Assembly: GCA_029241965.1 (NCBI GenBank)
Contig: JAPWVK010000159.1
Span: 1 to 34,086, forward strand
DNA from: Candidatus Methanophagales archaeon
Lineage (GTDB): Archaea > Halobacteriota > Syntropharchaeia > Alkanophagales > Methanospirareceae
Reading direction: 5' to 3'
Length of the DNA stretch: 34,086 nt
This document shows, in pieces, positions 1 through 30,460 of this stretch; positions within the stretch are counted from its first letter, which is position 1; every line of letters starts with the position of its first letter. The translations under genes were made by a program, and so were the position numbers. The notes below the pieces were generated by a model. That model was given only the letters and a program-made list of their open reading frames with translations, had not been told where the DNA came from and searched no databases.

Positions 1-285
1 ATTTTGTTGGATTTTTCGCAGGAATATATGCAGGGTTGGTAGTATTACTTGCGGATAAAATCCTTCCATATTTATGTTGGTGGACTGTGTTGTATTTTCT
101 ATTATTTGTTCTGTTGACGTTTTTTATGGGTTTCTTTGCATCATGATTCTTAATTATATTTGCACTTTAAAGAGGAGATGATTAATTAATTACGACTTCT
201 GTTAATAATCAATTCAATATAAAAATCCCGACTCCTCTTTTGTTCACTTTAGGGAAACGAAAAATGGGGGGGGTAAGATATTGCT

Positions 286-305
286 TCGCAAAAAAAAAAT
301 CAAAG
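286..305 (-). terminator. Oligo-T tract (T10 on minus strand) just downstream of the stop of the CAP-domain gene; archaeal-style terminator candidate
   Basis: A10 at 291-300 on plus strand gives T10 on minus, 28 nt after the stop at 328; a G8 run lies nearby at 265-272. Confidence 0.3.
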
Positions 306-327
306 GGTTCGAATCTATCTGGCAAAA

Positions 328-1197
328 TTAACAGAAATCTTCAGTTATATACACCTTGTCATCCCTTGAAATAGCCACACCAATACCTTCACTTTTCCAA
401 TAGGCTGTTAAAATGTTCTGTCTATGCCCGGGGCTATTCATCCAGCCTTGAACAGTGGATTCCGCAATTTCGTCCTGAGAGTTCCAATCATAAGAGGGAA
501 TTCCGCCATAGTATGTTACCGAACTGTATAAATTGTTCTGAAAAATATTTTCAGCACCCTTATAGATGTAGTTTCCCACACGTACATCACAATTAAAGCC
601 TTCTTGTTGGTATCTATAAGAAAAATCATGCCCTTCTGGATCGCTATGAGCAAAATAGTTTCTATTCGCCATATCTTGACTGTGCTTTCTCGCAATAACG
701 CTCAATTTGTCATTCCAAGCTAATGTCGGCAATCCTCGTTTTTCTCTTTCTTCGTTTATCAGGTCGTGGATTTGTTTTTCTAATTCTTGAATATTGATTT
801 CTGGTTTTGATGAAGTCACAGAAGGCGAATAATTGCCTGTTTCGTTCCACCAACTACCAACATCTTCACCTACACTTTGAAAAGATGATTGCATTCCATC
901 AGATTGGAAAGCAGGATATAAGAAATAACCAGCAACTGCTAAAATTGCTAGGGCAATTATAGCCTTTTTAATTTTCATTTCTCTTTCTTTTCTATATTTG
1001 TATCTCAGTTTTCTATAAGCAATAGTGCCTTGACCACCGAGATGTTCAATGTAATATCTGTAATGCTCCCCCGTAAGGTAAATGCCTTCCCAGCGACCAG
1101 TTTTATCTGCCATCTTGTATGCTCTTTTATAAACCCATTGGGGTATTTTCGTTTCGTCTATTTCTTCCCAACCGGTTAAATCAATTTTTCTTGGCAT
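328..1197 (-). CDS. Membrane-anchored CAP/SCP/PR-1-like domain protein
   Basis: C-terminal region has CAP-family signatures (ARKHSQDMANRNYFAHSDPEG ... SPGHRQNIL, cf. HNxxR and GHYTQ motifs); one TM helix (KKAIIALAILAVAGYFLY) after a basic cytoplasmic N-terminus. Confidence 0.5.
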   Translation of the reverse strand: MPRKIDLTGWEEIDETKIPQWVYKRAYKMADKTGRWEGIYLTGEHYRYYIEHLGGQGTIAYRKLRYKYRKEREMKIKKAIIALAILAVAGYFLYPAFQSDGMQSSFQSVGEDVGSWWNETGNYSPSVTSSKPEINIQELEKQIHDLINEEREKRGLPTLAWNDKLSVIARKHSQDMANRNYFAHSDPEGHDFSYRYQQEGFNCDVRVGNYIYKGAENIFQNNLYSSVTYYGGIPSYDWNSQDEIAESTVQGWMNSPGHRQNILTAYWKSEGIGVAISRDDKVYITEDFC

Positions 1198-1226
1198 ATT
1201 TTATTCCCTTTTTCGGATACAATAAC

Positions 1227-1574
1227 CTATATTTTTTCCCATTCTTTACGAATTTTGTAGGAATCGTTTTCTCCGAATATTATCGTTCTTCTGAGCTTTT
1301 TCAAAGCTTCTACTCTTTTTTGAGTCTTCGGACGAACCCATAAAAGACGATATATAAGATATATAAGATATGAAAAAATGAAGATTGAGATGATAAGTAG
1401 AGAAAACCGTAAACCAGAAATGATGGAAGTGATGTTATTAGCTGGTAAATTAGTTGTTCCTGCTGCAAATATAAGGGCTGTAATTGAAAGTGCAACTGCT
1501 ACAAGCAGAGTGATAGTTGGGGTAGTACTATCTTGGCTATTTTGTATTCTCTGTCGAGTAGAGCTCATAGCCAT
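1227..1574 (-). CDS. Small hypothetical membrane protein (2 predicted TM)
   Basis: ORF with two hydrophobic helices; overlaps the upstream gene by 10 nt, which suggests co-transcription. Confidence 0.3.
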
Positions 1575-2221
1575 CTCCTCCCGGAAGCTACTATGAGCCC
1601 CCTCACAGAACCGGACTTGAGGTTTTCCCTCATCCAGCTCTTCGGAAGAACCTCCCTACCCTTTACCGGATAGGTTATGAGTCCAGTTTTGTTGCCACCC
1701 TTTACCAGCCTCTTTGTGCGGTGGATGTGTCCCTGACCCAACGGTTCAACCGCCAGCCCCTTCCCTCCACGGGCATTACCCCGCTTCTCCGGTACTATGA
1801 ACTGGTCCGACTCCCAGAGTGTCGTCTGCACTATCTTACCGTTTATATGTTTGATAGGACATACTCCGGTAAGGAGAACACCCCGGGTCTCCCGAGTTAA
1901 CATAATATCCATTTGATACCGTGCCACGGTCTCAGACCCCGTCGGGCTCGCATCGCATCGCCACGTCCTATTAAGACTATCGGCGATGAGAGTACTGCCT
2001 TCCGCCAACCAAACAGCGTCGGCCACCGACACAATAAGAATTTCGTGGCTGAATCCCTTCACTTGCGTTGCAGCCCAGTATCCCATTCCCCTAGCTTCAC
2101 CACAGCCTGTTACCAGGCTGGATGCAAGGTTCAGTTCTGAGGTGGCGGCTAACCTTTCCTCAGGTTGGATTTCCACCAACTGGATATTATGAACTTTGCT
2201 CGGCACTCCCCCCCCAAACAT
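1565..2221 (-). CDS. Hypothetical protein, weak metallophosphoesterase-like C-terminus (GQGHIHR)
   Basis: 218-aa ORF; a GHxH-like motif near the C-terminus, other phosphoesterase motifs not convincingly present; poly-C8 tract (2208-2215) inside its first codons. Confidence 0.3.
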
Positions 2222-2292
2222 CTCCAGAACTCTGTACGAACACTAAATCCCTTTACCTGTAACTACGATACTCTGATATACGATACAACCGT

Positions 2293-4026
2293 TCACACAT
2301 CCAACCTGAATATCTTCACCTCTTTGCTCTGATAAAACGGCATGTAACCCTCGATAGAGGGGTTAGTCCATAACCGGTAATAGTTAGTCCGATTTGTGAG
2401 CTCGTTCCGCCCGACCAATCGCCCGTTATCATCAAAATACATCCTGATTGACTCATTACTGGGTGTCAGACTGTAACCCGTGGCATAACCCATTATAGGT
2501 GTCAGATAAGCATCGTACTGAAAAAGCATCAGGTACACTTCCGAGCTATTATGCTTCTGTTTGAGTGTTCGCGCAATCTGCAAGCCTTTGTCCGGGTCCG
2601 TTGCCACGATGACCGCAGAAACCGCTTTTACTGTCTCATCAGGAATGTACATCTGGTCAATTACAGGCCTACGTTTCGCGAAATACGCCAATGAATTGCC
2701 GTGGTCCCACCAGTTGATAAATAGCGAATCTGCGGCTGTGTTGTTCTGGATGTACAAAAATGCTGCTTTCTTTTCTGGTTGGATGATATATCCGCCTGGA
2801 TAGCGCACTTCATTTACGGAACAAATGACAGGATTTACGAATGCGATGACTATGATTACGATAACAGCCACACTCGCAAGCTTTTTCCATACCGATTTTT
2901 GCCGTTCCTGCCCCTGTATTCTTTCTAATATGAACGAGGCACCGATGCCAAGCGAGATGTACACGAACATCGAGAACATATCCATGAAATGGTACGCCCG
3001 AACTGCCGGCATCATGGTAGCGAGCAGTGCGGCAAGGAGATACAAACCACTTCTTCCATCGCGTTTGTAAAGGCCATACACACCAACTGCGGTCATGACA
3101 AGCCCAACCAGCAGAAATGTCCCGAAAAGCGATTCAAAACTTTCTATGCGCGGCGGCATAAGGTCGCTTGTGAATTTATAGACCAAAGGACCTTCTGCAA
3201 ATCCCAGCATCTGTGCCGCTCTCAAGATTTCCACGGGTCCACGCACCGGATAGAGAATCAGCGCTATTATAGTGCCAAAGAACAGCGAGGAACAGATGAG
3301 CACCCACGTTTTCGGCAGATAACTCTTATATTGTTTCATAGAATCACGCTTGACCAAAACGGAAGTGGTTAAAAGGAGTGCATAAAAGATCAGTATCGCA
3401 TGAATGATGAAATATCCACCCCACGTGAAACCTGTGATGCCAATAAGAGCTGCGGGAGTGAGTATAGAAGCCAAATAGATAGCTCGATCCTTGAATCCCC
3501 TCGGAAACGGATTATCAACAGTTTTTAGTGCGTACCAAAAAGCGACAACCGTTAATAAGATTAGAAACAGAGAAAGAGCGTCGTGGAAGACGAACCCTTT
3601 CATGGTGCGTAAGATCAGAATATGAGAGAATGACGCGAGCACACCCGCAATGATTCCCGCAGACTTATTAAATAGGCTCGTTGCAAACCAGTATATAACC
3701 AGCACGGTAGCAGCACCGAGTAAGGGCGGCACCAGACCCTCAGCGATAATCATGCTTGGTTGCGAGAATTTGTAAGGAATGAGATCAATCAACCAGCCCA
3801 CGAAGGCAAGAAGATAAGCCATACCGGGCTGATATAACGGCGCTGAACTGAACGGGTCAGGAACTGCAGGATGTCCAAACGAATAGATATATTCTGCCTG
3901 TCTTGCCATATAAGCATCGTTATCCCATTTTGTCTCCCAAGTACCACCTAAAAAGCGTATGGCGAATGCTAAAATAAAGAGCAAGATAAAAGGAAACAGC
4001 TCTTCTATCTTCTTTCTTGCACTCAT
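2293..4026 (-). CDS. aglB: Archaeal oligosaccharyltransferase AglB (STT3 family, short type)
   Basis: Multi-TM N-terminal domain with first-loop motif WDNDAYMARQAEYIY (cf. STT3 DxD/DPDxYYHxR loop), a WWDHG variant of the catalytic WWDYG motif, and a DPDKGLQI DK-type motif in the C-terminal soluble domain; 577 aa. Confidence 0.65.
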   Translation of the reverse strand: MSARKKIEELFPFILLFILAFAIRFLGGTWETKWDNDAYMARQAEYIYSFGHPAVPDPFSSAPLYQPGMAYLLAFVGWLIDLIPYKFSQPSMIIAEGLVPPLLGAATVLVIYWFATSLFNKSAGIIAGVLASFSHILILRTMKGFVFHDALSLFLILLTVVAFWYALKTVDNPFPRGFKDRAIYLASILTPAALIGITGFTWGGYFIIHAILIFYALLLTTSVLVKRDSMKQYKSYLPKTWVLICSSLFFGTIIALILYPVRGPVEILRAAQMLGFAEGPLVYKFTSDLMPPRIESFESLFGTFLLVGLVMTAVGVYGLYKRDGRSGLYLLAALLATMMPAVRAYHFMDMFSMFVYISLGIGASFILERIQGQERQKSVWKKLASVAVIVIIVIAFVNPVICSVNEVRYPGGYIIQPEKKAAFLYIQNNTAADSLFINWWDHGNSLAYFAKRRPVIDQMYIPDETVKAVSAVIVATDPDKGLQIARTLKQKHNSSEVYLMLFQYDAYLTPIMGYATGYSLTPSNESIRMYFDDNGRLVGRNELTNRTNYYRLWTNPSIEGYMPFYQSKEVKIFRLDV

Positions 4027-4063
4027 GGCTTTACACCATTTTTTCTGTGTCTTTTCAAATGAG

Positions 4064-5977
<1,914 letters not shown>

Positions 5978-14239: not shown

Positions 14240-14533
14240 CTACCCCCGCCATTCGGGGTAATCCTACTGCGGAACACGTCGGGGGTAACGCTTGCGTGGT
14301 AAGCTCGCAGGACAACGTGGAAAATCAGAAAGTCCGATTTGGATCAACTGCCAGGATAAGAACGCTATTTGTTGACAAGAAGTTGCATCACCGATTGCCT
14401 AACCGGGTACCCCCGCCATTCGGGGTAATCCTACCGCGGAATGCGCGGATGGGAACGTCCACGTAGTAAGCCCGCGGAACAACGTGTAAAATCTGAAAGT
14501 CCGGTTTAGATCAACTGCAAGGATAAAAACACC
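14240..14533 (+). ncRNA. Tandem pair of homologous structured RNA elements (copy 1 ~14240-14405, copy 2 ~14406-14533), candidate cis-regulatory leader or small RNAs; family not identified
   Basis: Two ~130-165-nt copies share CCCC-GCCATTC-GGGG hairpin, a long-range helix with compensatory changes (CTGCG...CGCAG vs CCGCG...CGCGG), inner hairpin ACGC..GCGT vs ACGT..ACGT, conserved GAAAGTCCG loop region. Confidence 0.35.
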
Positions 14534-14923
14534 ATGAAGAGCGTAAAGCGAACCATTGTAAGAGTCGTCACGTATAATAAGCGAAAACGGACTGTTACGC
14601 TTGGACCAAAAGGTACGGAATTTGGCCATAATGGCTACCATAACGTTATGGTGGGTGGACATACGATTCCCGGCTTACAGGCGGCTTCTAAGGTGTTCAT
14701 AAATATCTGTGATGTAGAACGTGGTAAGCCCTATATGCTCCCGGAATCACAGGGTAGGGACCTCGTAAGGGTAAACGATGGCTTAGAGGGTAGAGGATTT
14801 GGTAAAAAGCGAATGGCATCTTGTAATGAAAGGTATAGGGGTTCGAAATTTGCCCTAACCCGAAAGGGTGCTGACTTACCAAATTGGTGTTCCATTGTAT
14901 GCTTGGAGGCAGAATGTAAGTAG
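14534..14923 (+). CDS. Hypothetical small basic protein (129 aa)
   Basis: ATG immediately after the second RNA copy; K/R-rich N-terminus, several Cys; no recognisable family. Confidence 0.35.
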   Translation: MKSVKRTIVRVVTYNKRKRTVTLGPKGTEFGHNGYHNVMVGGHTIPGLQAASKVFINICDVERGKPYMLPESQGRDLVRVNDGLEGRGFGKKRMASCNERYRGSKFALTRKGADLPNWCSIVCLEAECK

Positions 14924-15171
14924 TTCAATTACGCCTGTAATAGGCGAGCGACTTACAGACATTCAACCAAAACGCCGATATCATATGGAAAGAGGTTGAA
15001 GAACTTGTTAACAGGTTGCAAACCTGAATTACAAAAGCAGTTAACTGCTGCCCGATACAGAAAGGGTTATGAAATGCTTGAGCGGTATGAAGGGAAACTT
15101 TCACGTACCGTTCTGAGACGAGGAGGGGCGAGCAATCGCCCCATCCTTAGTCTGCTAGCTAAACAAATAAT

Positions 15172-22343: not shown

Positions 22344-23801
22344 TTATACCGCTTCTCCCAACACCGACACCGTGGATGTGTCCGTTCCCGACCCTTTCAG
22401 CTCGTATGCCAGATACAAGTCATTGTAAGTTCCTACGGATACTGTTACCCCTGTATCTTTATAGCTACCCCATGACTTTAGAGTAGTCCAGCTACTGACC
22501 GCCCAGGGGCTCGTGTCATCTACGGTTACATTACAGAAATGAACCGGATAACTCTCTATGGCTGAAGACGTATTTGCATCCCTGACGAAGCATGCTAGCG
22601 TTATTGTCTCCCCTACGGTGTAACTATTTTCGTCAGGAGGCAAATCCCATGTTACGTTTGACCAGCCCCACTTAACCACCGACTCATTCTGATAAGAGCT
22701 GTTAGAATTAGATGCATTGTCATAAGTTGTTTCGGTAATATTGTATTCTCCGTCCTCAGGGACGGACAAAGTAACGACAAAAGTTCCATTTGTGGCGTTT
22801 GTAGTTGAATTGACTATCTTTCCTTCGTAAGGCACTTTGTCTATTTTCTTGATGATTACAGGTTTATTATTCTCATCAAGGGCGACCAAAATTCTTCCAT
22901 CCGAAATCTTCTGGTAGATGTTTTCTATCCTTATAAGAGAGAATTTATTTATATACCCGTTGCCAATATTATCAGTGGTGGTAGAAATGTCGGAAGTCGA
23001 AATCAGGTTTAAAGTTCCCACGGGATTGAAGGAAGAGATGGAAGAGCTTCCGGGAATGGAAGAGATGGTTGTAGAATTCATAAGGCTGAAGATTTTCGAG
23101 CATGAATTGAAGAAGTCTAAGGAATTACAGAGGTTCATATTTGAGTCGTTGTCCGCAAAGAGCAAATTGACGCTGGCAGATGCTATTGAACTTGGGGCGA
23201 AAATGAAGGAAGGAATGCTTGAAGAGCTCAAAGAGAAGGGATTACTGTAGATGAGACTGGTTGTGGATGCAAATGAGCTGTTCGCGGGGATAATCGCTAA
23301 AGGTAAGGAATTACAGAGTTGGACGCTGGACATATTATTTTCAGATGAAGTTGAATTGTTCGCACCTTTCATATTGCTTGCCGAATTGGAGAAGAACAGG
23401 GATGAGATAAGGGAAAAGTCAGGATTTTCCCTGAGGGATTTTGATGTGTTCGTTGGCATCCTCAAGTTAAGAGTCGGATTTATCCCTCTGGAGCGGTTTT
23501 TAGCTAAGATTCCGGAGGCTAAGGAGTTGGCACCGCATTTAAAAGATGTCGAATATTTCGCATAAGCATTGAAACTTGATTGCCCAATCTGGACGCAAGA
23601 AAAAGCGTTCAAAAAACAATCTGTAGTCAAGGTGTTCTCAACTCTTGATTTGTTTTCGTTTTTATCCGAGACAGGCCCATAGCCCGCTAAAGAGGTTGAA
23701 GGATATTTTGGATTGACTGAAGTGTAAACCTTATGCTCTGGCGAAAACGTCAGAACTGTTTCGTATCTACTCAAATCCATAAATCTTATTTTTTGCTTCA
23801 T
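22344..23801 (-). CDS. Truncated paralog of the giant surface protein (last ~190 aa) preceded by a third, N-terminally truncated intein-like element
   Basis: C-terminus ...SWTTLKSWGSYKDTGVTVSVGTYNDLYLAYELKGSGTDTSTVSVLGEAV nearly identical to the giant protein C-terminus; N-terminal part carries FSPEHKVY (Hint block B) and ILVALDENNKPVIIKKIDKVPYEGKI (Hint C-terminal half) around a low-complexity S/L-rich segment that is antisense to 22987-23682. Confidence 0.45.
   Translation of the reverse strand: MKQKIRFMDLSRYETVLTFSPEHKVYTSVNPKYPSTSLAGYGPVSDKNENKSRVENTLTTDCFLNAFSCVQIGQSSFNAYAKYSTSFKCGANSLASGILAKNRSRGINPTLNLRMPTNTSKSLRENPDFSLISSLFFSNSASNMKGANNSTSSENNMSSVQLCNSLPLAIIPANSSFASTTSLIYSNPFSLSSSSIPSFIFAPSSIASASVNLLFADNDSNMNLCNSLDFFNSCSKIFSLMNSTTISSIPGSSSISSFNPVGTLNLISTSDISTTTDNIGNGYINKFSLIRIENIYQKISDGRILVALDENNKPVIIKKIDKVPYEGKIVNSTTNATNGTFVVTLSVPEDGEYNITETTYDNASNSNSSYQNESVVKWGWSNVTWDLPPDENSYTVGETITLACFVRDANTSSAIESYPVHFCNVTVDDTSPWAVSSWTTLKSWGSYKDTGVTVSVGTYNDLYLAYELKGSGTDTSTVSVLGEAV
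22987..23250 (+). CDS. Small antitoxin-like protein (partner of the PIN gene), antisense within intein-like copy 3
   Basis: MSEVEIRFKVPTGLKEEMEELPG..., homologous to 26826-27050 and 27864-28094 products (shared E-[IV]-V-V/F-K/E-V-P N-terminus); stop abuts the PIN start (TAGATG); track ORF starts earlier at 22918. Confidence 0.45.
   Translation: MSEVEIRFKVPTGLKEEMEELPGMEEMVVEFIRLKIFEHELKKSKELQRFIFESLSAKSKLTLADAIELGAKMKEGMLEELKEKGLL
23251..23682 (+). pseudogene. PIN-domain toxin gene interrupted by an in-frame TAA
   Basis: MRLVVDANELFAGI... (PIN N-terminal Asp) ...HLKDVEYFA-stop-ALKLDCPIWTQEKAFKK...; intact paralogs read HLKDMPYVALSLKFDCKIL and DVDFFALALKLNCPLW at the same position. Confidence 0.45.
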
Positions 23802-26800
23802 ACCGCTTCTCCCAACACCGACACCGTGGATGTGCCCGTTCCCGACCCTTTCAGCTCGTATGCCAGATACAAGTCTTTGTGTGTTCCTTTGGATACTCTT
23901 ACCCCTGTATCTTTATAGCTACCCCAAGATTTTAGACTAATCCAGCTACCAACAGCCCCGGGGCTCGTGTCATTTGCGGTTACGTTAAACTTCTCGTCAT
24001 TTATTATTGTTGACCAACCGTTCACCTCTTCTACCTTCAGCCAGATCTTGTATTCAGTCGAAGAAGAAGGATTGTAAATTGTAACTACTGGTGAGTTACT
24101 GGTCACATTTTGCGGGTTGCCGCTGCCGTCCGCATTATTGTGTGGGTCAACTACTGTGGCACCAGTTGCACCCGAGAAGTTAATGGAACTGATACTCTGC
24201 GAAGCAGTTTGATTTCTGATTTCAAGTGTCGTTGCGTATGACAACTCTATGGATGTATTGGCTTCATCATCCGCAGTGACGTTATAAAACAGCGTGGCAT
24301 TATCCGTGATATTACATTTTGGATAGTACCATCCTACTGCCACGCCTGATGTATCCCAATCCAGGACGGCATATCCGCTGCTATTCGTGTAATTCAGACC
24401 AAGGTATGTCACGGTAGAGTCAGTCTTGTTATAAAAACGAACCGGATAATTCTCTATGCCCGATGAGGTATTGACATCGCGGACAAGGCATGTTAGCGTT
24501 ATTATCGCACCTGATTCGTAACTACTTCCGCCGGAAGGCGAGCCCCACGTTACGTTTGACCAACCCATCTTAAACACCGATTGATTTTGATACGAGATAT
24601 TATAATTCGATGCGTTATCATACATCTCTACCGACACGTTGTATTTCCCCTTAGCAGCACTTGAATTTAGATAAAAACTCGCATTTACATACGAATTTGG
24701 TGTGTAAGCAGTATCCGACGACGAATTGATGGTCGCAGTAGCGTTGTATATCGTGACCGTGTAGTTCTTTGGATTATCCTCCGTGTACGAGAAGTTGACA
24801 TAAAACTGCTCGCCGCCCTTCTTGTAGATTGGAACGGAAGTTGTAGGCACGTCTATCGTGATAGTCGGTGATTGCGAATCTATGGTGAAGTTCGTACCGA
24901 GCCACGTCTCTGACGTCTCGCCCTCATCGTCTGTTGCCACGCAATGCAACGTATAGAGTCCGGGACTATAATTGGATGCGTTGAACGCTATATCGGCAAT
25001 CCCGCCAGCGGCATCCGCTTCGGTAAAAGTATTGTTTACTATCGAAATAAATGTCTGGTTCGGATAGCACAAAGTCAGATTATGAACCACTGTGCCGCCG
25101 TCCGGATCGGTCGCAACCCCAACACCAATATCGAATATACCGTCATAGCTACCATTCATATCATAGTCCTTTACACCACTGATATTGAAATACCTAATGT
25201 GCGGGACGGTAGGTGGATAGTGCACCAATCTGATGTCGTTTGTAAGCAGCGTTGAATTGCTCCAACTACCCGATGCGTTTGCTGCATACAGCTTCATCTG
25301 GTGCTGCATACCACTTTTAGAGTAGTCGAAAAATAACTTCGGCGTCCATGCCGCCTGCAAAAATGACGAGCCATCATTGGTACTCGTCCATGCAACGTTT
25401 GTTTGCGCAAACGATATGTTCATACCGCTCGTACCATCTACATACGCCAGGCGGTACTCATTGCTTGTAGCTGTCGGAGATCGGAAGTATATGTATCCAT
25501 GCGGTGTTGTGTTTACGTCAGAACCTATAACCCTGCTATTGTTCACACCAATCGTAAAGGTCACGAACGAACTGTTGTACGGCTCGTACGTGTAATCATC
25601 TACTGTTGTGCCAGTGTACGAAGTCAAGTAAGTATAATATGGACTTTCGAGTGGCTTACCGCCAGTGATGTTATACGAGTCGTTTAGGTAGTAAATATCA
25701 AGATTGTTCGATGCTCCCAGATCGGTTGCCTCGAAAGCGATATGTATTTTATAGTCCGAAGAACCTTTAATTGCTTCAGTGTCCCAGAACTTGACCAGAG
25801 CAGCACGGTATCCTGTTGAGCCCTGTTTATAGATGTCATAATATTTGCTAATCTCTTTCTGCATCCGCGTCCTATCTAAGTAATACATGTTCTCAAATAC
25901 AGTATTCTCAACCGTGCCATTCCAGTGCACATACGAGTGCGTGTCATTTACCTTTTGGATAGTAAGCCGGGAAGTGTTTTCATCCGCGCCCGCCCATTTC
26001 CAGACGTTGCCCTCTGTGATGGTGGCATTATCCTCAAAGTTCAAGCGCTGTATTGTAGCATTCCGGTTATCGGCACGTAGAATCTGCTCGTTGCATAAAG
26101 CCCATACCGCAGATTTGTTGTTGCTCGGAACACGGAGTGACCAGTTATAACTATCGAGCACCGAGTCCCAGAGCGTCCAGACGAGCGATACGCTGCTGTT
26201 ATTGAGTGTATGTGTAGCATCCGTAGTAACCAACCAGGTTACGTTGAATGCACCGGTCGAGTTCTCGTAAATCGTAGCCGGCTCCTGCGAGATGAGTTCA
26301 AATGTCGGACAGCCCGCCTGATTGTATGCATAATCGACGTCACCACCAAATCGAAACTCTAATGCGTGTTTGCCCGAAGTTAAAACCTTACTTGTTTCGT
26401 AGCTGGTTTCGTTACAGGAATAATTGTGTATGAATAAGGAATTGTTTCGCCATTGATAATCCAGTGTGCGATTGCCGCATTTCAGGGCAAGCAATTGCAG
26501 GTCATAGTTTGAGTTGCCGCACCAGACAGGCGTTGAGTTTTTACGCCGTATTAAAAGTATGCGGTTCGGGACGGTAACAGAGTAAATCTTGCCGTTATAA
26601 GGGACTTCTTCGATTTTTTTTACTGCTACGGGATTCTGTTCGGAATCGAGGAATACTAACTGTTTGTCGGGTAGCTCGTGGAGTTCCGAGATTTTTAGCA
26701 ATGAATAGGTATTTAAACCGTTCGGATTTATAGTATTAGTGATGACGGTTTCTTTTTCATTCACGGTCACAGGCATCGAGAAGTTATTTAAATACAGCAA

Positions 26801-29800
26801 GTTAGTTTTATTATTGGTGAGAGAAATGGCCGAAATAGTTGTTAAGGTTCCAGAGGATATTGGTATAGAGCTTGGTAGGGTTTCAGAAGAGAATTGGCAA
26901 TTGTTATTCTCAAGATTCCTGAGAAGAGAGCTGGAAGAAATAAGAGGGATCGAAGCGATAGTATCTAAATCAAAACTAACAGAGGAGCAAGCCAAAGAAT
27001 TAGCAGATGAAGTAAGTTTAGCGATAGCTAAAAGACTTCTTGAGAAGTGATTCGAGATGTTATTGGTAGTTGACGCTAATGTCGTATTCTCAGCACTAAT
27101 AAGAAGAGGCAAGCCATTAAGGGTATTTGAGTTGAACAAGCTTCTCATGAAATTTGAATTTATTGCACCAGAGTTCCTGTTCTTTGAGGTGGGTAAAAGA
27201 ATGGATAAAATACTCAAGCTCACAGATTTATCTAAAGAAGAGTTCATAACGGTTTTTTCATTCATTAAGAATGAACTCGAGCTAATTCCTCTTGAAACAT
27301 TTGAAGATAAAGTTGATGAAGCCAAGGAGAGATCACCACACTTGAAGGATATGCCATATGTTGCTTTATCCCTCAAATTCGATTGTAAGATTCTGTCTGG
27401 AGATAAAGGAATAAAGGAATGCTTGCCTGGTAGAGTCATCATACCATCTAAAGCCTTAAGAATTCTATTTGGGAGGACTGCACCATAAACCTTATGCTCA
27501 GGCGAAACCAGCAGTTGACTGCCATCTTCCAGAGTAAGCTCGAACATCGCATCCGAATAGTCGTATTCCAGATATTTAATCGGTTTCTGATTGCAAAAAA
27601 GTTTTGTGTGTTCTTTTGTAATTTGTGGTTTCCTTGTGGTTTCGTTATGCCGTTTCACCAGCACGATGTCGTTCGGGACGTCAACGTCATAAATCTTGCC
27701 GGTATAAGGGACTTCTTCGATTTTTTTTACTGCTACGGGATTCAGCTCGGAGTCAAGGAATACTAACTGTTTGTCTGATAGCTTGTCATAGAGTTCCGAT
27801 ATTTTTAGCAATGAATAAGTATTTAAATACAGCAAGCCAGTCTTATAATTAGGGGCGATAGAAATGTCAGAGTTAGTTGTTGAGGTTCCAGGATTGCTTA
27901 GAGGAGAGGTTGGTAAGCTAGAGCGAGAGATAGAGGAGCTAATATCGTGGGAGGAGAAGCGTAAATTACTCTCTCTGTTCATGGATGAGGTTATGAAAGA
28001 TGCTAAACAGTTGAGCGAAGACGAACTGGTTACACTTGGAAGAGAGATTAAGAAAGGCAGGTTTGAAAAGCTCAAGCAAAGGGGGTTTGTATGAGTGCGG
28101 TTAGTTGCTGACACAACCGAACTCTTCTCGTTCTTCAACGCTCGGTCAAAGGCAAGGGAGTTATCCATAATCCCTGAATTGGAATTACATTCCCCCTCCT
28201 TTTCTTTATATGAACTCAAAGAACATAAATCCAAGATTCTTACGAGTTTCTCGTTGACCGAGACACAGTTTCTATTGATAATGAAGTTGCTTAAGACCGT
28301 TGTAAAAGTTGCTAAAGAGGAAGAATACTCGGATTTTCTATCGGAGGCTAAGGAAATATCTCCAGACCCTAACGATGTAGATTTCTTTGCGTTGGCTCTG
28401 AAACTGAACTGTCCGCTTTGGTCAGAGGATAAGCTGCTAAAGGGGCAGTCTAAGGTTAAGGTACTCTCTACAAAAGATTTACTTGAACTTTTATCTCTCA
28501 TCAGCCCATAAACCTTATGCTCAGGCGAAACCAGCAGTTTACTGCCATCCGCCAGAGTAAGCTTGAACATCGCATCCGAATAGTCGTATTCCAGATATTT
28601 AATCGGTTTCTGCCATTCCTGCTCTCCCGTCTCCTGGTTTAAAGTCAGAACTTCTTCTTCTGGTTCTAAATCTTTGAACAGTTTCCAGCCTTCTTTTGTT
28701 AGAACCTCGGTTTCTTCGTCGTAACATTCGTACGGTTGGTTAGTCCAGGTCGTCCCGTTAACCGCGGTTATAGTCAAATCCGCAGTTCCTTCCGTCTCGA
28801 ACTTGACAGACCAGTTTCCACCTACTGCTGGATAAGACTGGACATTAATTATACTAATCGGATCAACAGCAACATACCAGGGTCTTGCCTCTGTAAATGT
28901 TTCTGAATCATAACTAATTTCCGCAGTACCTAAAGCGTACAAATAAGGCCACACAGGAGGAACTGCGTAAGAATAACTGACAGATGTTTTCTTGCCAATT
29001 AAATCTTTATTCCAGGTTATTGTCTTTGTATCGTCTTCCTGCATAACCGTAGCGGCATCCGTTGAATACACATCGAACTCAGCAGGCACAAATTCTTTTA
29101 ACGTTACGGATTCCGCATCAGTAAAGCATTCTACGTCAATCCTGACCTCAAACCTGTCCTGCAGTGTGGGGTCTATCTTGCTTTGTGTCGTTCTTATGAT
29201 GTCGAATTCATACTCCGGCTGAACCCGGAAATACGTATTGAAGAATACTTCAACGTTGTCAATTAAACCCGTGACTGAGATCGAGTGATTACCCTCTATT
29301 TCCGTTGGGTAATCCAGGTTATAAATGCCAGATTCGCTACTTGCGGTAATCGTGCCATCAGCGGTGGAATAAATCGTTTCCTCGTTATCGGGATTGTTTA
29401 CGGTTAAATAAAGATCGGCATTGCTGACTGAGTGCCCTGCTTTATCCAGGACAACGATAACGAATTCCACGGTTTCACCGGGTTTGTAGATGCTTTTTTT
29501 GGTGTTTACGGAAACAAGGCCCCACGGGAATTCGGATTCTAAAACGTAAACGTGCTCGTCCTTCACTAACTCCACACTTAATGTATATACGCCCACTCGG
29601 AATGCTCGTTCCTTAGGCAATTTAATTGCGAATTTGCCTTCGCCTTTTTTCGCTATTTCGGGCGCGATGTCTGTTAGTGCACCCGAAGAATCATAAACAA
29701 AAGTCTCTATCGTTTCGTTTTCTGTCACCCAGCGTTTCAATGCTTTTTGGGGTGCGCCAATAGCAGCTTCCTCACTTACAGTGCTAAGCATTTCCCGCGA

Positions 29801-30460
29801 TGCGTTTTCGGTAACATTTTCATTAAAAGTTTTCTGCGAAGCGTTTTTGATAAAACTTTTATTAAAAGTTTTATATTCAAACGAAAAAGTCGGTTCCTCA
29901 TCCAGGGAATAAGACTCTTTGTTTGCAATTAGTTTTGGCGGTTCAATCACGGATTCCGTAACATTAATATTACGTGATTCACCTGTTGATTCGTTAATCG
30001 TATAATTCAAACCGATGACGGAGGTATTATCAGTTGCATTTTCCGGTGTTTGTATCGTAACGCCCGAGGCATTACCTGTTGTATTATCCGTTGTATTTTC
30101 CGGTGTTTGTAACGTAACGCCCGAGGCATTACCTGTTGTACTATTATTAGTTGCAGTTTCAGGTGTTTGTATCGTAATGCCCGTGGCATTATCAGTTGTG
30201 TTATCAGTTACATTATCAGGTGATAGTATCGGATTTATCGGTGCCGTTACGTCCGTAATATTTTCTGACGGGGTATCATTAAGGTTAGTTACGTATGATG
30301 TAATGTTTTCAGGCAGCGTTGTGTTCTCGTTTTGTGTTGCACCAAAAGCGATTAAAGGCACGATAAGCAAAGCTATGACAATTGTAATGCGTGCGCTCTT
30401 CCAGTTTGTTTTTGCTCTTAGCATCTTTTCGCAGGTCAAGCTTCCTTTTCTATCATACAT
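23798..30460 (-). CDS. Giant secreted cell-surface glycoprotein (2220 aa) containing two tandem intein-like insertions
   Basis: N-terminal signal/TM (ARITIVIALLIVPLIAFGA), three 22-aa tandem repeats, very high density of N-x-S/T sequons throughout, repeated beta-rich domains, C-terminal domain shared with 22344-23801 and 31856-32419 products; likely true start at MLRAKT (~30424). Confidence 0.55.
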   Translation of the reverse strand: MYDRKGSLTCEKMLRAKTNWKSARITIVIALLIVPLIAFGATQNENTTLPENITSYVTNLNDTPSENITDVTAPINPILSPDNVTDNTTDNATGITIQTPETATNNSTTGNASGVTLQTPENTTDNTTGNASGVTIQTPENATDNTSVIGLNYTINESTGESRNINVTESVIEPPKLIANKESYSLDEEPTFSFEYKTFNKSFIKNASQKTFNENVTENASREMLSTVSEEAAIGAPQKALKRWVTENETIETFVYDSSGALTDIAPEIAKKGEGKFAIKLPKERAFRVGVYTLSVELVKDEHVYVLESEFPWGLVSVNTKKSIYKPGETVEFVIVVLDKAGHSVSNADLYLTVNNPDNEETIYSTADGTITASSESGIYNLDYPTEIEGNHSISVTGLIDNVEVFFNTYFRVQPEYEFDIIRTTQSKIDPTLQDRFEVRIDVECFTDAESVTLKEFVPAEFDVYSTDAATVMQEDDTKTITWNKDLIGKKTSVSYSYAVPPVWPYLYALGTAEISYDSETFTEARPWYVAVDPISIINVQSYPAVGGNWSVKFETEGTADLTITAVNGTTWTNQPYECYDEETEVLTKEGWKLFKDLEPEEEVLTLNQETGEQEWQKPIKYLEYDYSDAMFKLTLADGSKLLVSPEHKVYGLMRDKSSSKSFVESTLTLDCPFSSLSSDQSGQFSFRANAKKSTSLGSGDISLASDRKSEYSSSLATFTTVLSNFIINRNCVSVNEKLVRILDLCSLSSYKEKEGECNSNSGIMDNSLAFDRALKNEKSSVVSATNRTHTNPLCLSFSNLPFLISLPSVTSSSSLNCLASFITSSMNRESNLRFSSHDISSSISRSSLPTSPLSNPGTSTTNSDISIAPNYKTGLLYLNTYSLLKISELYDKLSDKQLVFLDSELNPVAVKKIEEVPYTGKIYDVDVPNDIVLVKRHNETTRKPQITKEHTKLFCNQKPIKYLEYDYSDAMFELTLEDGSQLLVSPEHKVYGAVLPNRILKALDGMMTLPGKHSFIPLSPDRILQSNLRDKATYGISFKCGDLSLASSTLSSNVSRGISSSSFLMNEKTVMNSSLDKSVSLSILSILLPTSKNRNSGAINSNFMRSLFNSNTLNGLPLLISAENTTLASTTNNISNHFSRSLLAIAKLTSSANSLACSSVSFDLDTIASIPLISSSSLLRNLENNNCQFSSETLPSSIPISSGTLTTISAISLTNNKTNLLYLNNFSMPVTVNEKETVITNTINPNGLNTYSLLKISELHELPDKQLVFLDSEQNPVAVKKIEEVPYNGKIYSVTVPNRILLIRRKNSTPVWCGNSNYDLQLLALKCGNRTLDYQWRNNSLFIHNYSCNETSYETSKVLTSGKHALEFRFGGDVDYAYNQAGCPTFELISQEPATIYENSTGAFNVTWLVTTDATHTLNNSSVSLVWTLWDSVLDSYNWSLRVPSNNKSAVWALCNEQILRADNRNATIQRLNFEDNATITEGNVWKWAGADENTSRLTIQKVNDTHSYVHWNGTVENTVFENMYYLDRTRMQKEISKYYDIYKQGSTGYRAALVKFWDTEAIKGSSDYKIHIAFEATDLGASNNLDIYYLNDSYNITGGKPLESPYYTYLTSYTGTTVDDYTYEPYNSSFVTFTIGVNNSRVIGSDVNTTPHGYIYFRSPTATSNEYRLAYVDGTSGMNISFAQTNVAWTSTNDGSSFLQAAWTPKLFFDYSKSGMQHQMKLYAANASGSWSNSTLLTNDIRLVHYPPTVPHIRYFNISGVKDYDMNGSYDGIFDIGVGVATDPDGGTVVHNLTLCYPNQTFISIVNNTFTEADAAGGIADIAFNASNYSPGLYTLHCVATDDEGETSETWLGTNFTIDSQSPTITIDVPTTSVPIYKKGGEQFYVNFSYTEDNPKNYTVTIYNATATINSSSDTAYTPNSYVNASFYLNSSAAKGKYNVSVEMYDNASNYNISYQNQSVFKMGWSNVTWGSPSGGSSYESGAIITLTCLVRDVNTSSGIENYPVRFYNKTDSTVTYLGLNYTNSSGYAVLDWDTSGVAVGWYYPKCNITDNATLFYNVTADDEANTSIELSYATTLEIRNQTASQSISSINFSGATGATVVDPHNNADGSGNPQNVTSNSPVVTIYNPSSSTEYKIWLKVEEVNGWSTIINDEKFNVTANDTSPGAVGSWISLKSWGSYKDTGVRVSKGTHKDLYLAYELKGSGTGTSTVSVLGEAV
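26826..27050 (+). CDS. Small antitoxin-like protein, antisense within intein-like copy 2
   Basis: MAEIVVKVPEDIGIELGRVSEENWQLLFSRFLRRELEEIRGIEAIVSKSKLTEEQAKELADEVSLAIAKRLLEK; 6 nt upstream of the PIN start; track ORF starts earlier at 26739. Confidence 0.5.
   Translation: MAEIVVKVPEDIGIELGRVSEENWQLLFSRFLRRELEEIRGIEAIVSKSKLTEEQAKELADEVSLAIAKRLLEK
27057..27488 (+). CDS. PIN-domain (VapC-like, PIN_3-like) toxin
   Basis: MLLVVDANVVFSAL (Asp6), FEFIAPEFLFFEV (conserved Glu), HLKDMPYVALSLKFDCKILSGDKG (C-terminal Asp motifs); 143 aa. Confidence 0.6.
   Translation: MLLVVDANVVFSALIRRGKPLRVFELNKLLMKFEFIAPEFLFFEVGKRMDKILKLTDLSKEEFITVFSFIKNELELIPLETFEDKVDEAKERSPHLKDMPYVALSLKFDCKILSGDKGIKECLPGRVIIPSKALRILFGRTAP
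27864..28094 (+). CDS. Small antitoxin-like protein, antisense within intein-like copy 1
   Basis: MSELVVEVPGLLRGEVGKLEREIEELISWEEKRKLL...; stop TGA directly abuts the GTG start of the PIN gene. Confidence 0.5.
   Translation: MSELVVEVPGLLRGEVGKLEREIEELISWEEKRKLLSLFMDEVMKDAKQLSEDELVTLGREIKKGRFEKLKQRGFV
28095..28511 (+). CDS. PIN-domain (VapC-like) toxin, GTG start
   Basis: VRLVADTTELFSFF (Asp), ...EISPDPNDVDFFALALKLNCPLWSEDK; 138 aa. Confidence 0.55.
   Translation: MRLVADTTELFSFFNARSKARELSIIPELELHSPSFSLYELKEHKSKILTSFSLTETQFLLIMKLLKTVVKVAKEEEYSDFLSEAKEISPDPNDVDFFALALKLNCPLWSEDKLLKGQSKVKVLSTKDLLELLSLISP
30030..30240 (-). repeat. Three tandem ~66-bp coding repeats (22-aa sequon-rich units DNTTGNASGVTIQTPENATDNT) near the 5' end of the giant gene
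   Basis: Repeated nucleotide unit cgtaacgcccgaggcattacctgttgt... visible three times; sits within the 30424/30460-23798 giant-protein CDS. Confidence 0.6.

Follow-up and report, generated by a model that had tools for sequence, protein, structure and literature searches.

The contig JAPWVK010000159.1 of a Candidatus Methanophagales archaeon, 34,086 nucleotides long and referred to here as the window, carries a 738-codon in-frame insertion at positions 26513-28726 of the minus strand, within the gene of a large surface protein. We read this insertion as one compound class-1 intein that would be spliced out whole, and give this reading a probability of about 0.7. It is built from two fused units of an intein family in which the slot between blocks B and F, normally the place of an endonuclease, would serve as a cargo bay for an independently expressed toxin-antitoxin (TA) operon on the opposite strand. 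The ribosome would read the reverse complement of each operon as a disordered linker, in an intein frame that contains no stop codon, and the whole insert would be removable by protein splicing.

Boundaries and architecture of the compound intein

The limits of the insertion were fixed with host homologues that lack it. In P0034 the protein is contiguous across the site (...TITAVNGTTWTNYSE SDYDLKFLEIKCGN), as it is in P0028, P0033, P0035, P0037, P0039 and eight metagenome loci (L080-L087); the reading shared by these intein-free homologues is ...TITAVNGTTW.N..E..DL.FLE.KCG. Because they run straight through the site, the insert corresponds to Cys579-Asn1316. It lies between Glu578, the last residue of ...NQPYE, and Ser1317 (26510-26512), which takes the +1 nucleophile position, and the host without C579..N1316 reads ...TITAVNGTTWTNQPYE↓SNYDLQLLALKCGN (arrows mark junctions), collinear with the intein-free homologues. 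At its C-terminus the insert reads RRKNSTPVWCGN↓SNYDLQ, that is VWCGN↓S, with Asn1316 as terminal residue. Relatives were collected by a homology search with unit 1, which also returned inteins with a LAGLIDADG interior in ThyX, LamG and other hosts. Those with a classical endonuclease (P0010 and P0013-P0016) and more than 40 other members end in ...V[RK]R.G..[VI]W[CS]GN↓[SCT], and the motifs x↓CYD.ETE, VS[PE][EK]H.VY and WSGN↓S are found family-wide. The insert in the window has the features of a class-1 intein, namely an N-terminal Cys, a block B of the S-x-x-H type (VSPEHKVY) and a C-terminal Asn followed by Ser, and the Pfam family Intein_splicing (PF14890) matches aa 596-930 with 37.1 bits, above the cutoff of 35.8. 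Pfam found no LAGLIDADG or HNH match across the 2220-aa host protein; LAGLIDADG motifs are present in P0010 and P0013-P0016.

The first-pass annotation of this region had described two intein-like copies in tandem, complete only at their outer ends. The two copies are real (aa 579-939 and 940-1308): the Intein_splicing match extends across unit 1, and direct DNA repeats link the two, one of 107 nt at 96% identity (27483-27589 against 28506-28612) and one of 121 nt at 87%. As read directly from the sequence, copy 1 starts with Cys1 and ends in ...VKRHN followed by Glu; copy 2 has no Cys1 and begins with ETTRKPQITKEHTKLF, a degenerate version of block A from which about 22 aa have been deleted. 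The residues that had been named as junctions did not survive an alignment with the family and the intein-free homologues. The HN of copy 1 aligns with RRKN/RRGN, the end of block F, and unit 1 is without block G; copy 2 does not end at RRKN before Ser1309 but eight residues further on, at Asn1316, and the +1 residue is Ser1317. HN, KN and +1 had all been misassigned, and what stands is the claim about the outer ends, on the basis of the motif map of the compound: block A once, block B twice, block F twice and block G once. The Cys of the CNQ motif was considered as an alternative nucleophile and rejected, since nothing in the family alignment corresponds to it and it falls within what is left of the decayed block A.

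By these motifs, only the N-terminal half of unit 1 and the C-terminal half of unit 2 are catalytically complete. The host protein would be restored only if these two outer halves cooperate and cut out all that lies between them. The two units are mosaics: identity is 77-95% in the Hint-coding ends but 37-55% at the DNA level in the cargo (30% between the two PIN proteins), a difference that excludes a simple recent tandem duplication as their origin. In a DNA comparison, the junction KRHN↓ETT.RKPQITKEHTKLF can still be matched to block A (EETEVLTKEGWKLF). The likeliest origin is a side-by-side pair of complete inteins from which some 12 codons (STPVWCGN↓CYDE) later disappeared, and with them block G of the leading intein and the Cys1 region of the following one. 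If the 96%-identical repeats were to recombine, the compound would be reduced to a canonical single intein with cargo 2.

Two other loci hold compounds at the same host site. The N-extein of L088 is 100% identical to that of the window over 43 aa. Its layout consists of an N part, cargo 2 of the window (92-95% identical), a decayed C part, an aspartic protease gene on the opposite strand and a second C part. L078 contains ParE/RelE-like and DUF433 cargo. All three compounds have kept the outer junctions and the open frame, and their inner remnants have decayed, as would be predicted for an outer pair under selection as the functional unit. These alleles also show turnover of cargo, in that close relatives differ in what they carry at the same host site. 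The second cargo of L088 encodes a 120-aa retropepsin-like aspartic protease (PF13650/PF13975; 959-1321) opposite to host ORF (open reading frame) 208..4227; because L088 carries this gene, the cargo is not restricted to TA modules.

The whole compound was modelled with AlphaFold2 (AF2; mean predicted confidence, pLDDT, of 46), and the model was used for the pattern of ordered and disordered parts and for Hint-fold matches, not for contacts. The Hint parts are ordered (pLDDT 71-94 overall), with about 90 in unit 1 (residues 11-85 and 301-365) and 71-82 in unit 2 (391-430 and 680-740). When these ordered parts were compared with the PDB by Foldseek, only inteins and Hint domains were returned: the gp41-1, DnaB and NrdHF inteins, BIL2, a C. 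thermocellum bacterial intein-like (BIL) domain and hedgehog (E about 1e-3, probability 1.0, 75-100 aligned columns). The two linkers are of low complexity, rich in Ser, Leu and Asn and without Pfam match, and their pLDDT is about 25. A search with the minus-strand linker of the window in 1.84 billion representative proteins gave 54 clusters in which PIN_2 cargo is read through, some of them 1259-3994 aa long.

Opposite-strand operons and their recurrence in the family

The plus-strand genes within each unit had been overlooked in the earlier reading. Each unit holds a predicted type II TA operon with its own promoter, ribosome-binding site, antitoxin gene and toxin gene (Table 1), which would be expressed independently. 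A GGTGA-like ribosome-binding site precedes each of the two pairs, and the distance between the antitoxin stop and the PIN start is 0 nt in operon 1 and 6 nt in operon 2. Toxin 2 has 97 homologues, the closest of them 95% identical. Between cargo 2 of the window and that of L088, the ratio of nonsynonymous to synonymous differences (pN/pS) is about 0.22, calculated from 30 differences and applicable to both strands jointly, as the wobble positions coincide and the strands are inseparable; by this measure purifying selection acts on the TA frame of cargo 2. Concerning the antitoxin fold, NCBIfam gave no usable match to the TA proteins, and only weak DUF2683 and VapB matches were obtained.

Table 1. 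Positions of the compound intein, its parts and its cargo in the window, with tRNA-like elements of two related loci
Feature	Position (nt)	Strand	Remarks
Host gene	23798..30460	-	2220-codon ORF; secreted or anchored surface protein, rich in N-glycosylation sites
Compound intein, Cys579..Asn1316, 738 aa	26513..28726	-	Delimited by family C-terminal motif, intein-free homologues and motif map
Unit 1, N-terminal Hint half, aa 579-652	28505..28726	-	Block A CYDEETEVLTKEGWKLF, block B VSPEHKVYG; pLDDT about 90
Linker 1, aa 653-875	27836..28504	-	Reverse complement of TA operon 1; 25% Ser, predicted disordered, no stop
Unit 1, C-terminal Hint part, aa 876-939	27644..27835	-	Block F only, ends VLVKRHN; C-domain match q1-62 only
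Fusion junction and unit 2 N-terminal remnant, aa 940-993	27482..27643	-	Block A decayed, block B VSPEHKVYG intact
Linker 2, aa 994-1249	26714..27481	-	Reverse complement of TA operon 2; 20% Ser, predicted disordered, no stop
Unit 2, C-terminal Hint half, aa 1250-1316	26513..26713	-	Block F GKIYSVTVPNRILLIRR, block G TPVWCGN; pLDDT 71-80
TATA box 1, TTTAAATA	27822..27829	+	42 nt before antitoxin ATG; intein strand reads conserved YLN
Antitoxin gene 1, 76 aa	27864..28094	+	MSELVVEVP...; member of a 68-member antitoxin cluster
PIN_2 toxin gene 1, 138 aa	28095..28511	+	GTG start; PF10130, E=2.7e-20; D6, E40, D94 and S.D motif kept
TATA box 2, TTTAAATA	26787..26794	+	39 nt before antitoxin ATG, followed by GGTGA ribosome-binding site
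Antitoxin gene 2, 74 aa	26826..27050	+	MAEIVVKVP...; antitoxin cluster; 92% identical in L088
PIN_2 toxin gene 2, 143 aa	27057..27488	+	PF10130, E=8.4e-22
tRNA-like elements, L038	336-419, 772-856, 2526-2609, 3810-3895		On the intein strand
tRNA-like elements, L071	208-295, 5922-6005, 6358-6442		On the intein strand

The same arrangement was then followed through the family. The set comprised the window and loci L001-L077 (one of them a duplicate), on contigs gathered from protein matches and from a C-domain profile scan of one genome per species. Matches of the scan came almost entirely from metagenome-assembled genomes of DPANN archaea (Woese-, Pace- and Nanoarchaeota), Altiarchaeota and Methanosarcinales/anaerobic methanotrophic archaea (ANME); the same profile found no relatives in viral contigs. 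All 82 pairs of N and C domains, paired without regard to frame, proved to share one frame with no stop between them. The 76 interiors longer than 400 nt amount to 65,943 nt (about 22,000 codons). Their intein frame is free of stops, whereas 1,597 and 2,723 were counted in the two remaining sense frames. Together with these other-frame counts, 80 control genes from the same contigs served as an empirical null: they have 3.4, 4.8 and 6.6 antisense stops per 100 codons, depending on the register, and a single one lacks them altogether. For the TA genes by themselves some 590 stops would be expected, and none was seen.

Recognisable TA genes occur in 74 of the 76 interiors, on the opposite strand every time, and they belong to five families. 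PIN_2 with an antitoxin is the cargo of 39 interiors, ParE/RelE-like with an antitoxin of 16, DUF433 with DUF5615 of 8, DUF2283 with a DUF4258-like toxin of 3 and a PF01850 PIN of 1; there are several doubles. The intein-borne PIN proteins look functional as judged from size and active site: 44 of 45 measure 133-152 aa, and the catalytic D, E and D are each kept in 98-100% of the 45, both copies of the window included. TATA-like elements lie just upstream of the antitoxin in most loci, with a peak at -25 to -45 from the start codon and TTTAWATA placed at -30 to -42 from the antitoxin ATG, and the intein frame reads them as a conserved Y[LI][NK] or [VL][FY]K[SP]F at the start of the C domain. 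The antitoxin, PIN_2 and DUF5615 genes stand to the intein frame in the register where wobble faces wobble, and the ParE/RelE-like and DUF433 genes in another. Host ORFs of the family are intact up to more than 12 kb. Taken over five gene families and two registers, these statistics argue for selection on read-through.

The opposite orientation would allow a promoter, start codons and stop codons to coexist with an uninterrupted host ORF. Stop codons of an operon placed on the sense strand would cut the host protein short; in the opposite orientation, only TTA, CTA and TCA would have to be avoided, and in one register. The price of this arrangement would be the unusual amino-acid composition of the TA proteins (see below). 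The TA operons would replace homing as the persistence strategy of the intein, acting as addiction or stabilisation modules. Alternatively, they may be hitch-hikers that use the intein as a harmless landing site.

Alternative explanations

Several points weigh against a compound intein that is spliced as one piece. The penultimate residue of the intein is Gly and not His, secreted hosts are unusual for inteins, and splicing may be inefficient in a compound of 738 aa whose two long linkers are disordered. An addiction role is generally hard to prove for chromosomal TA pairs. The AF2 model, through its confidence pattern and not through contacts, is compatible with each unit folding locally; the two junctions would then lie in different Hint domains, and cleavage would be favoured over splicing. 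The same pattern, compatible with one fold per unit, suits an alternative that we hold to be unlikely, though worth serious consideration: that the loss of block G from unit 1 and of block A from unit 2 killed splicing, and that the insert is either retained or cleaved at its outer junctions, N-terminally by unit 1 and through Asn cyclisation by unit 2. The structural matches include BIL and hedgehog Hint domains, BIL domains typically occur in variable secreted surface proteins such as this host, and the decayed third copy at 22344-23801 (see below) shows that such elements die in this genome. A dead insertion, however, is difficult to reconcile with the conservation of the outer Cys1, block B, terminal Asn and +1 Ser in three independent compound alleles whose inner remnants decay, or with a host ORF that is still open over 2220 codons. 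The insert splits a conserved module and, left in place, 738 disordered residues would probably be harmful. Moreover, the N-halves are 92% identical over their shared part and the C parts 78%, which makes cross-pairing of the outer halves plausible both sterically and by sequence. A retained BIL-like domain, one of the two fates proposed at first, is not supported: the interior reads other genes in reverse complement, is of low complexity and predicted to be disordered, and does not resemble a functional domain that was kept. The other fate, excision as one giant unit, is better supported by the full outer block set and the precise insertion, and splicing in this form seems to us the probable outcome.

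The open frame itself also admits objections. The TA proteins of the window contain 0.7% Tyr, 0.7% His and 1.4% Gln, against 3.7, 1.8 and 2.3% in the control genes. Because they hold so little of these residues, synonymous shuffling of the four TA genes adds almost no antisense stops and is uninformative as a null: an open antisense frame already follows from which amino acids these proteins use. In addition, TA copies of this PIN_2 clade stay antisense-open in L090, where no Hint parts are detectable, and in L093, where only a remnant is left, so that openness at a single locus may be inherited and not currently selected. Such copies from the same clade, the outcome of the shuffling, the different cargo of close relatives and the truncated paralogue downstream would all fit a decaying recombination hotspot, at which mobile TA cassettes lie among relics of Hint pieces, the open frame is a passive legacy and the host protein need not function. 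We consider this quite improbable, since an open frame in 76 of 76 interiors, over five unrelated TA families and two registers, is hard to obtain without selection. The frame is also open in the spacer, promoter and junction segments outside the TA genes, every pair of N and C halves is in frame, long host ORFs are intact and the catalytic residues are conserved across the family. The converse proposal, in which the plus-strand ORFs arose as antisense artefacts by chance and a novel intein domain is encoded by the interiors on the minus strand, could draw on the fact that minus-strand interiors remain alignable in distant relatives (P0002 is 39% identical over 99% of unit 1). It is effectively refuted by the highly significant Pfam matches of PIN_2, ParE, DUF433, DUF5615 and DUF2283, all on the plus strand, and by the conserved antitoxin-toxin order, start and stop codons, TATA box, ribosome-binding site and active-site residues; the minus-strand translation, for its part, is 20-25% Ser, has no Pfam match and is modelled at a pLDDT of about 25.

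Relation to known systems, host gene and further observations

Among the closest known systems are the class-1 LAGLIDADG inteins (P0010 and P0013-P0016, ThyX included), which share the Hint blocks, the signature CYD.ETE..T..GWKLFKDL ... WCGN↓C/S, the insertion slot between blocks B and F and the in-frame insertion at a conserved host site. They differ in that their extra sequence is a fused domain, whereas here it is the reverse complement of separate genes with their own promoter; the cargo is a TA pair with no evident homing machinery or other mechanism of mobility, and the hosts are surface proteins instead of enzymes of replication or nucleotide metabolism. BIL domains have the Hint fold as well and are found in secreted, variable proteins, but the element in the window has a +1 Ser, is precisely inserted and belongs to a family of bona fide inteins that includes those of ThyX. 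The cargo resembles the type II TA modules of plasmids, integrons and integrative elements (VapBC-like PIN, ParDE/RelBE) in that the antitoxin gene lies upstream of, and abuts, the gene of a toxin with a PIN or ParE/RelE fold, and in its carriage by selfish elements and cassette-like exchange; here, however, the carrier is an intein, and the operon overlaps an opposite frame that must stay open. ORF-carrying self-splicing group I and II introns and nested elements likewise silence their insertion by self-removal and offer an internal slot for cargo. Removal would take place here at the protein level, so the cargo DNA must be translatable in the host frame, which is not demanded of intron cargo. 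In long antisense overlapping genes, known from viral overprinting and a few bacterial cases, opposite frames also run over hundreds of codons and wobble opposite wobble is preferred; in the present family, one strand encodes folded proteins and the other has only to be stop-free and harmless, and this in five unrelated gene families.

On the usual view, an intein survives by means of a fused homing endonuclease or else decays into a mini-intein, and to our knowledge the cargo of inteins is limited to in-frame endonuclease domains. A full-text search of the literature, with subscription-only papers outside its scope, found no description of inteins with opposite-strand genes or TA cargo. The cargo-bay intein with antisense TA operons, present in the window as a fused double, thus appears to be new as a type. 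We class the element as a member of the intein family; a fused homing endonuclease, of which Pfam gave no sign, defines the mobile subclass only. With somewhat less than even confidence, we propose 'cargo inteins' as a class of composite selfish elements. These would combine self-removal by the Hint halves at the protein level, which makes insertions in conserved surface-protein genes harmless, with exchangeable and independently transcribed cargo on the opposite strand (five TA families, the aspartic protease gene and, in DPANN archaea, tRNA-like elements on the same strand), addiction in place of homing, and Hint-coding ends that act as recombination arms for cargo swaps and compound arrays.

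A widespread archaeal intein family with TA operons would represent a new intein lifestyle in which two selfish elements cooperate, the intein making the insertion harmless and the TA operon perhaps making its loss costly. Constraint from both strands falls on about 220 codons of each unit, across dozens of lineages and five gene families, a natural data set for asking how much a protein sequence can give way to an open antisense frame. Gene callers either read through the insertions (54 clusters, some above 3000 aa) or break the host gene, so that TA genes and giant surface proteins of DPANN and ANME archaea are systematically misannotated. Disordered inserts of 220-650 residues are accommodated in the endonuclease slot of these inteins, a tolerance that may be of use in protein engineering.

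Concerning the host, the protein has an N-terminal signal or anchor segment, an MG2 domain at aa 319-387 (Pfam) and very many N-x-S/T sequons. Its closest homologue, P0017, is from a Ca. Methanophagaceae (ANME-1) archaeon and is 88% identical. The setting is chromosomal: gyrB, a class I tRNA synthetase gene, AglB/STT3 and CoaBC are also in the window, and a cluster of cohesin-domain surface proteins adjoins these chromosomal genes. The next gene downstream, minus-strand ORF 22344-23801, is a truncated paralogue of the host C-terminus and contains a third, decayed copy of the element. In this copy, a plus-strand antitoxin ORF (22918-23250) is followed by a PIN_2 ORF (23251-23565) cut to 104 aa, the block B remnant reads FSPEHKVY, the C part ends within block F, and blocks A and G are missing. 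Elsewhere in the window, Rfam recognised group II intron pieces, domains 1-4 and 5-6, at 1553-2173 (minus strand) and 14244-15155 (plus strand); no intron-encoded reverse transcriptase ORF is evident between them, and they look ORF-less or fragmentary.

The DPANN relatives contain tRNA-like elements of 82-92 nt with a long variable arm, which ARAGORN mostly assigned to Ile(gat) or Leu(caa); eleven of them, in the five loci scanned with Rfam, scored 36-53 bits against the tRNA model. They occur in L038 and L071 (Table 1), in L017, L053, L056, L062, L069 and in others. These elements share the strand of the intein, and the open frame continues through them: each of the 22 falls within a stop-free stretch of between 1.8 kb and more than 12 kb. 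They are found in split block A regions, as the sole content of interiors of about 285 nt, and some 200 nt past block F. Block A is split in many DPANN members (among them P0004 and P0006, and loci L017, L024, L027, L032, L038, L044 and others, whose N-domain matches start at q11-15): an insertion, which often holds a tRNA-like element, follows CYD.ETEILT, and the block resumes with ..C..EEWKLFKDL. Judging from these alignments, the family tolerates inserts at a second position of the Hint fold.

In ten loci (L014, L017, L024, L027, L028, L035, L039, L041, L045 and L068) the C-extein starts with SNNG after ...WSGN, and the N-exteins, where recovered, end in motifs such as SGH↓, YMH↓ or GE↓. 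We suspect that these inteins sit within what we take to be the conserved D.SG.GN.G motif of LamG domains, which would be a second recurrent insertion site besides TWTNQPYE↓SNYDL. Finally, P0003 in L002 is a single complete intein (C1...WSGN↓S) with ParE/RelE-like cargo, and only 3-6 codons of its ORF precede it. A Y1 transposase gene of the IS200/IS605 type and an rve integrase gene lie on either side of it (L002, 58-501 and 1946-2824), a possible hint about how these elements move.

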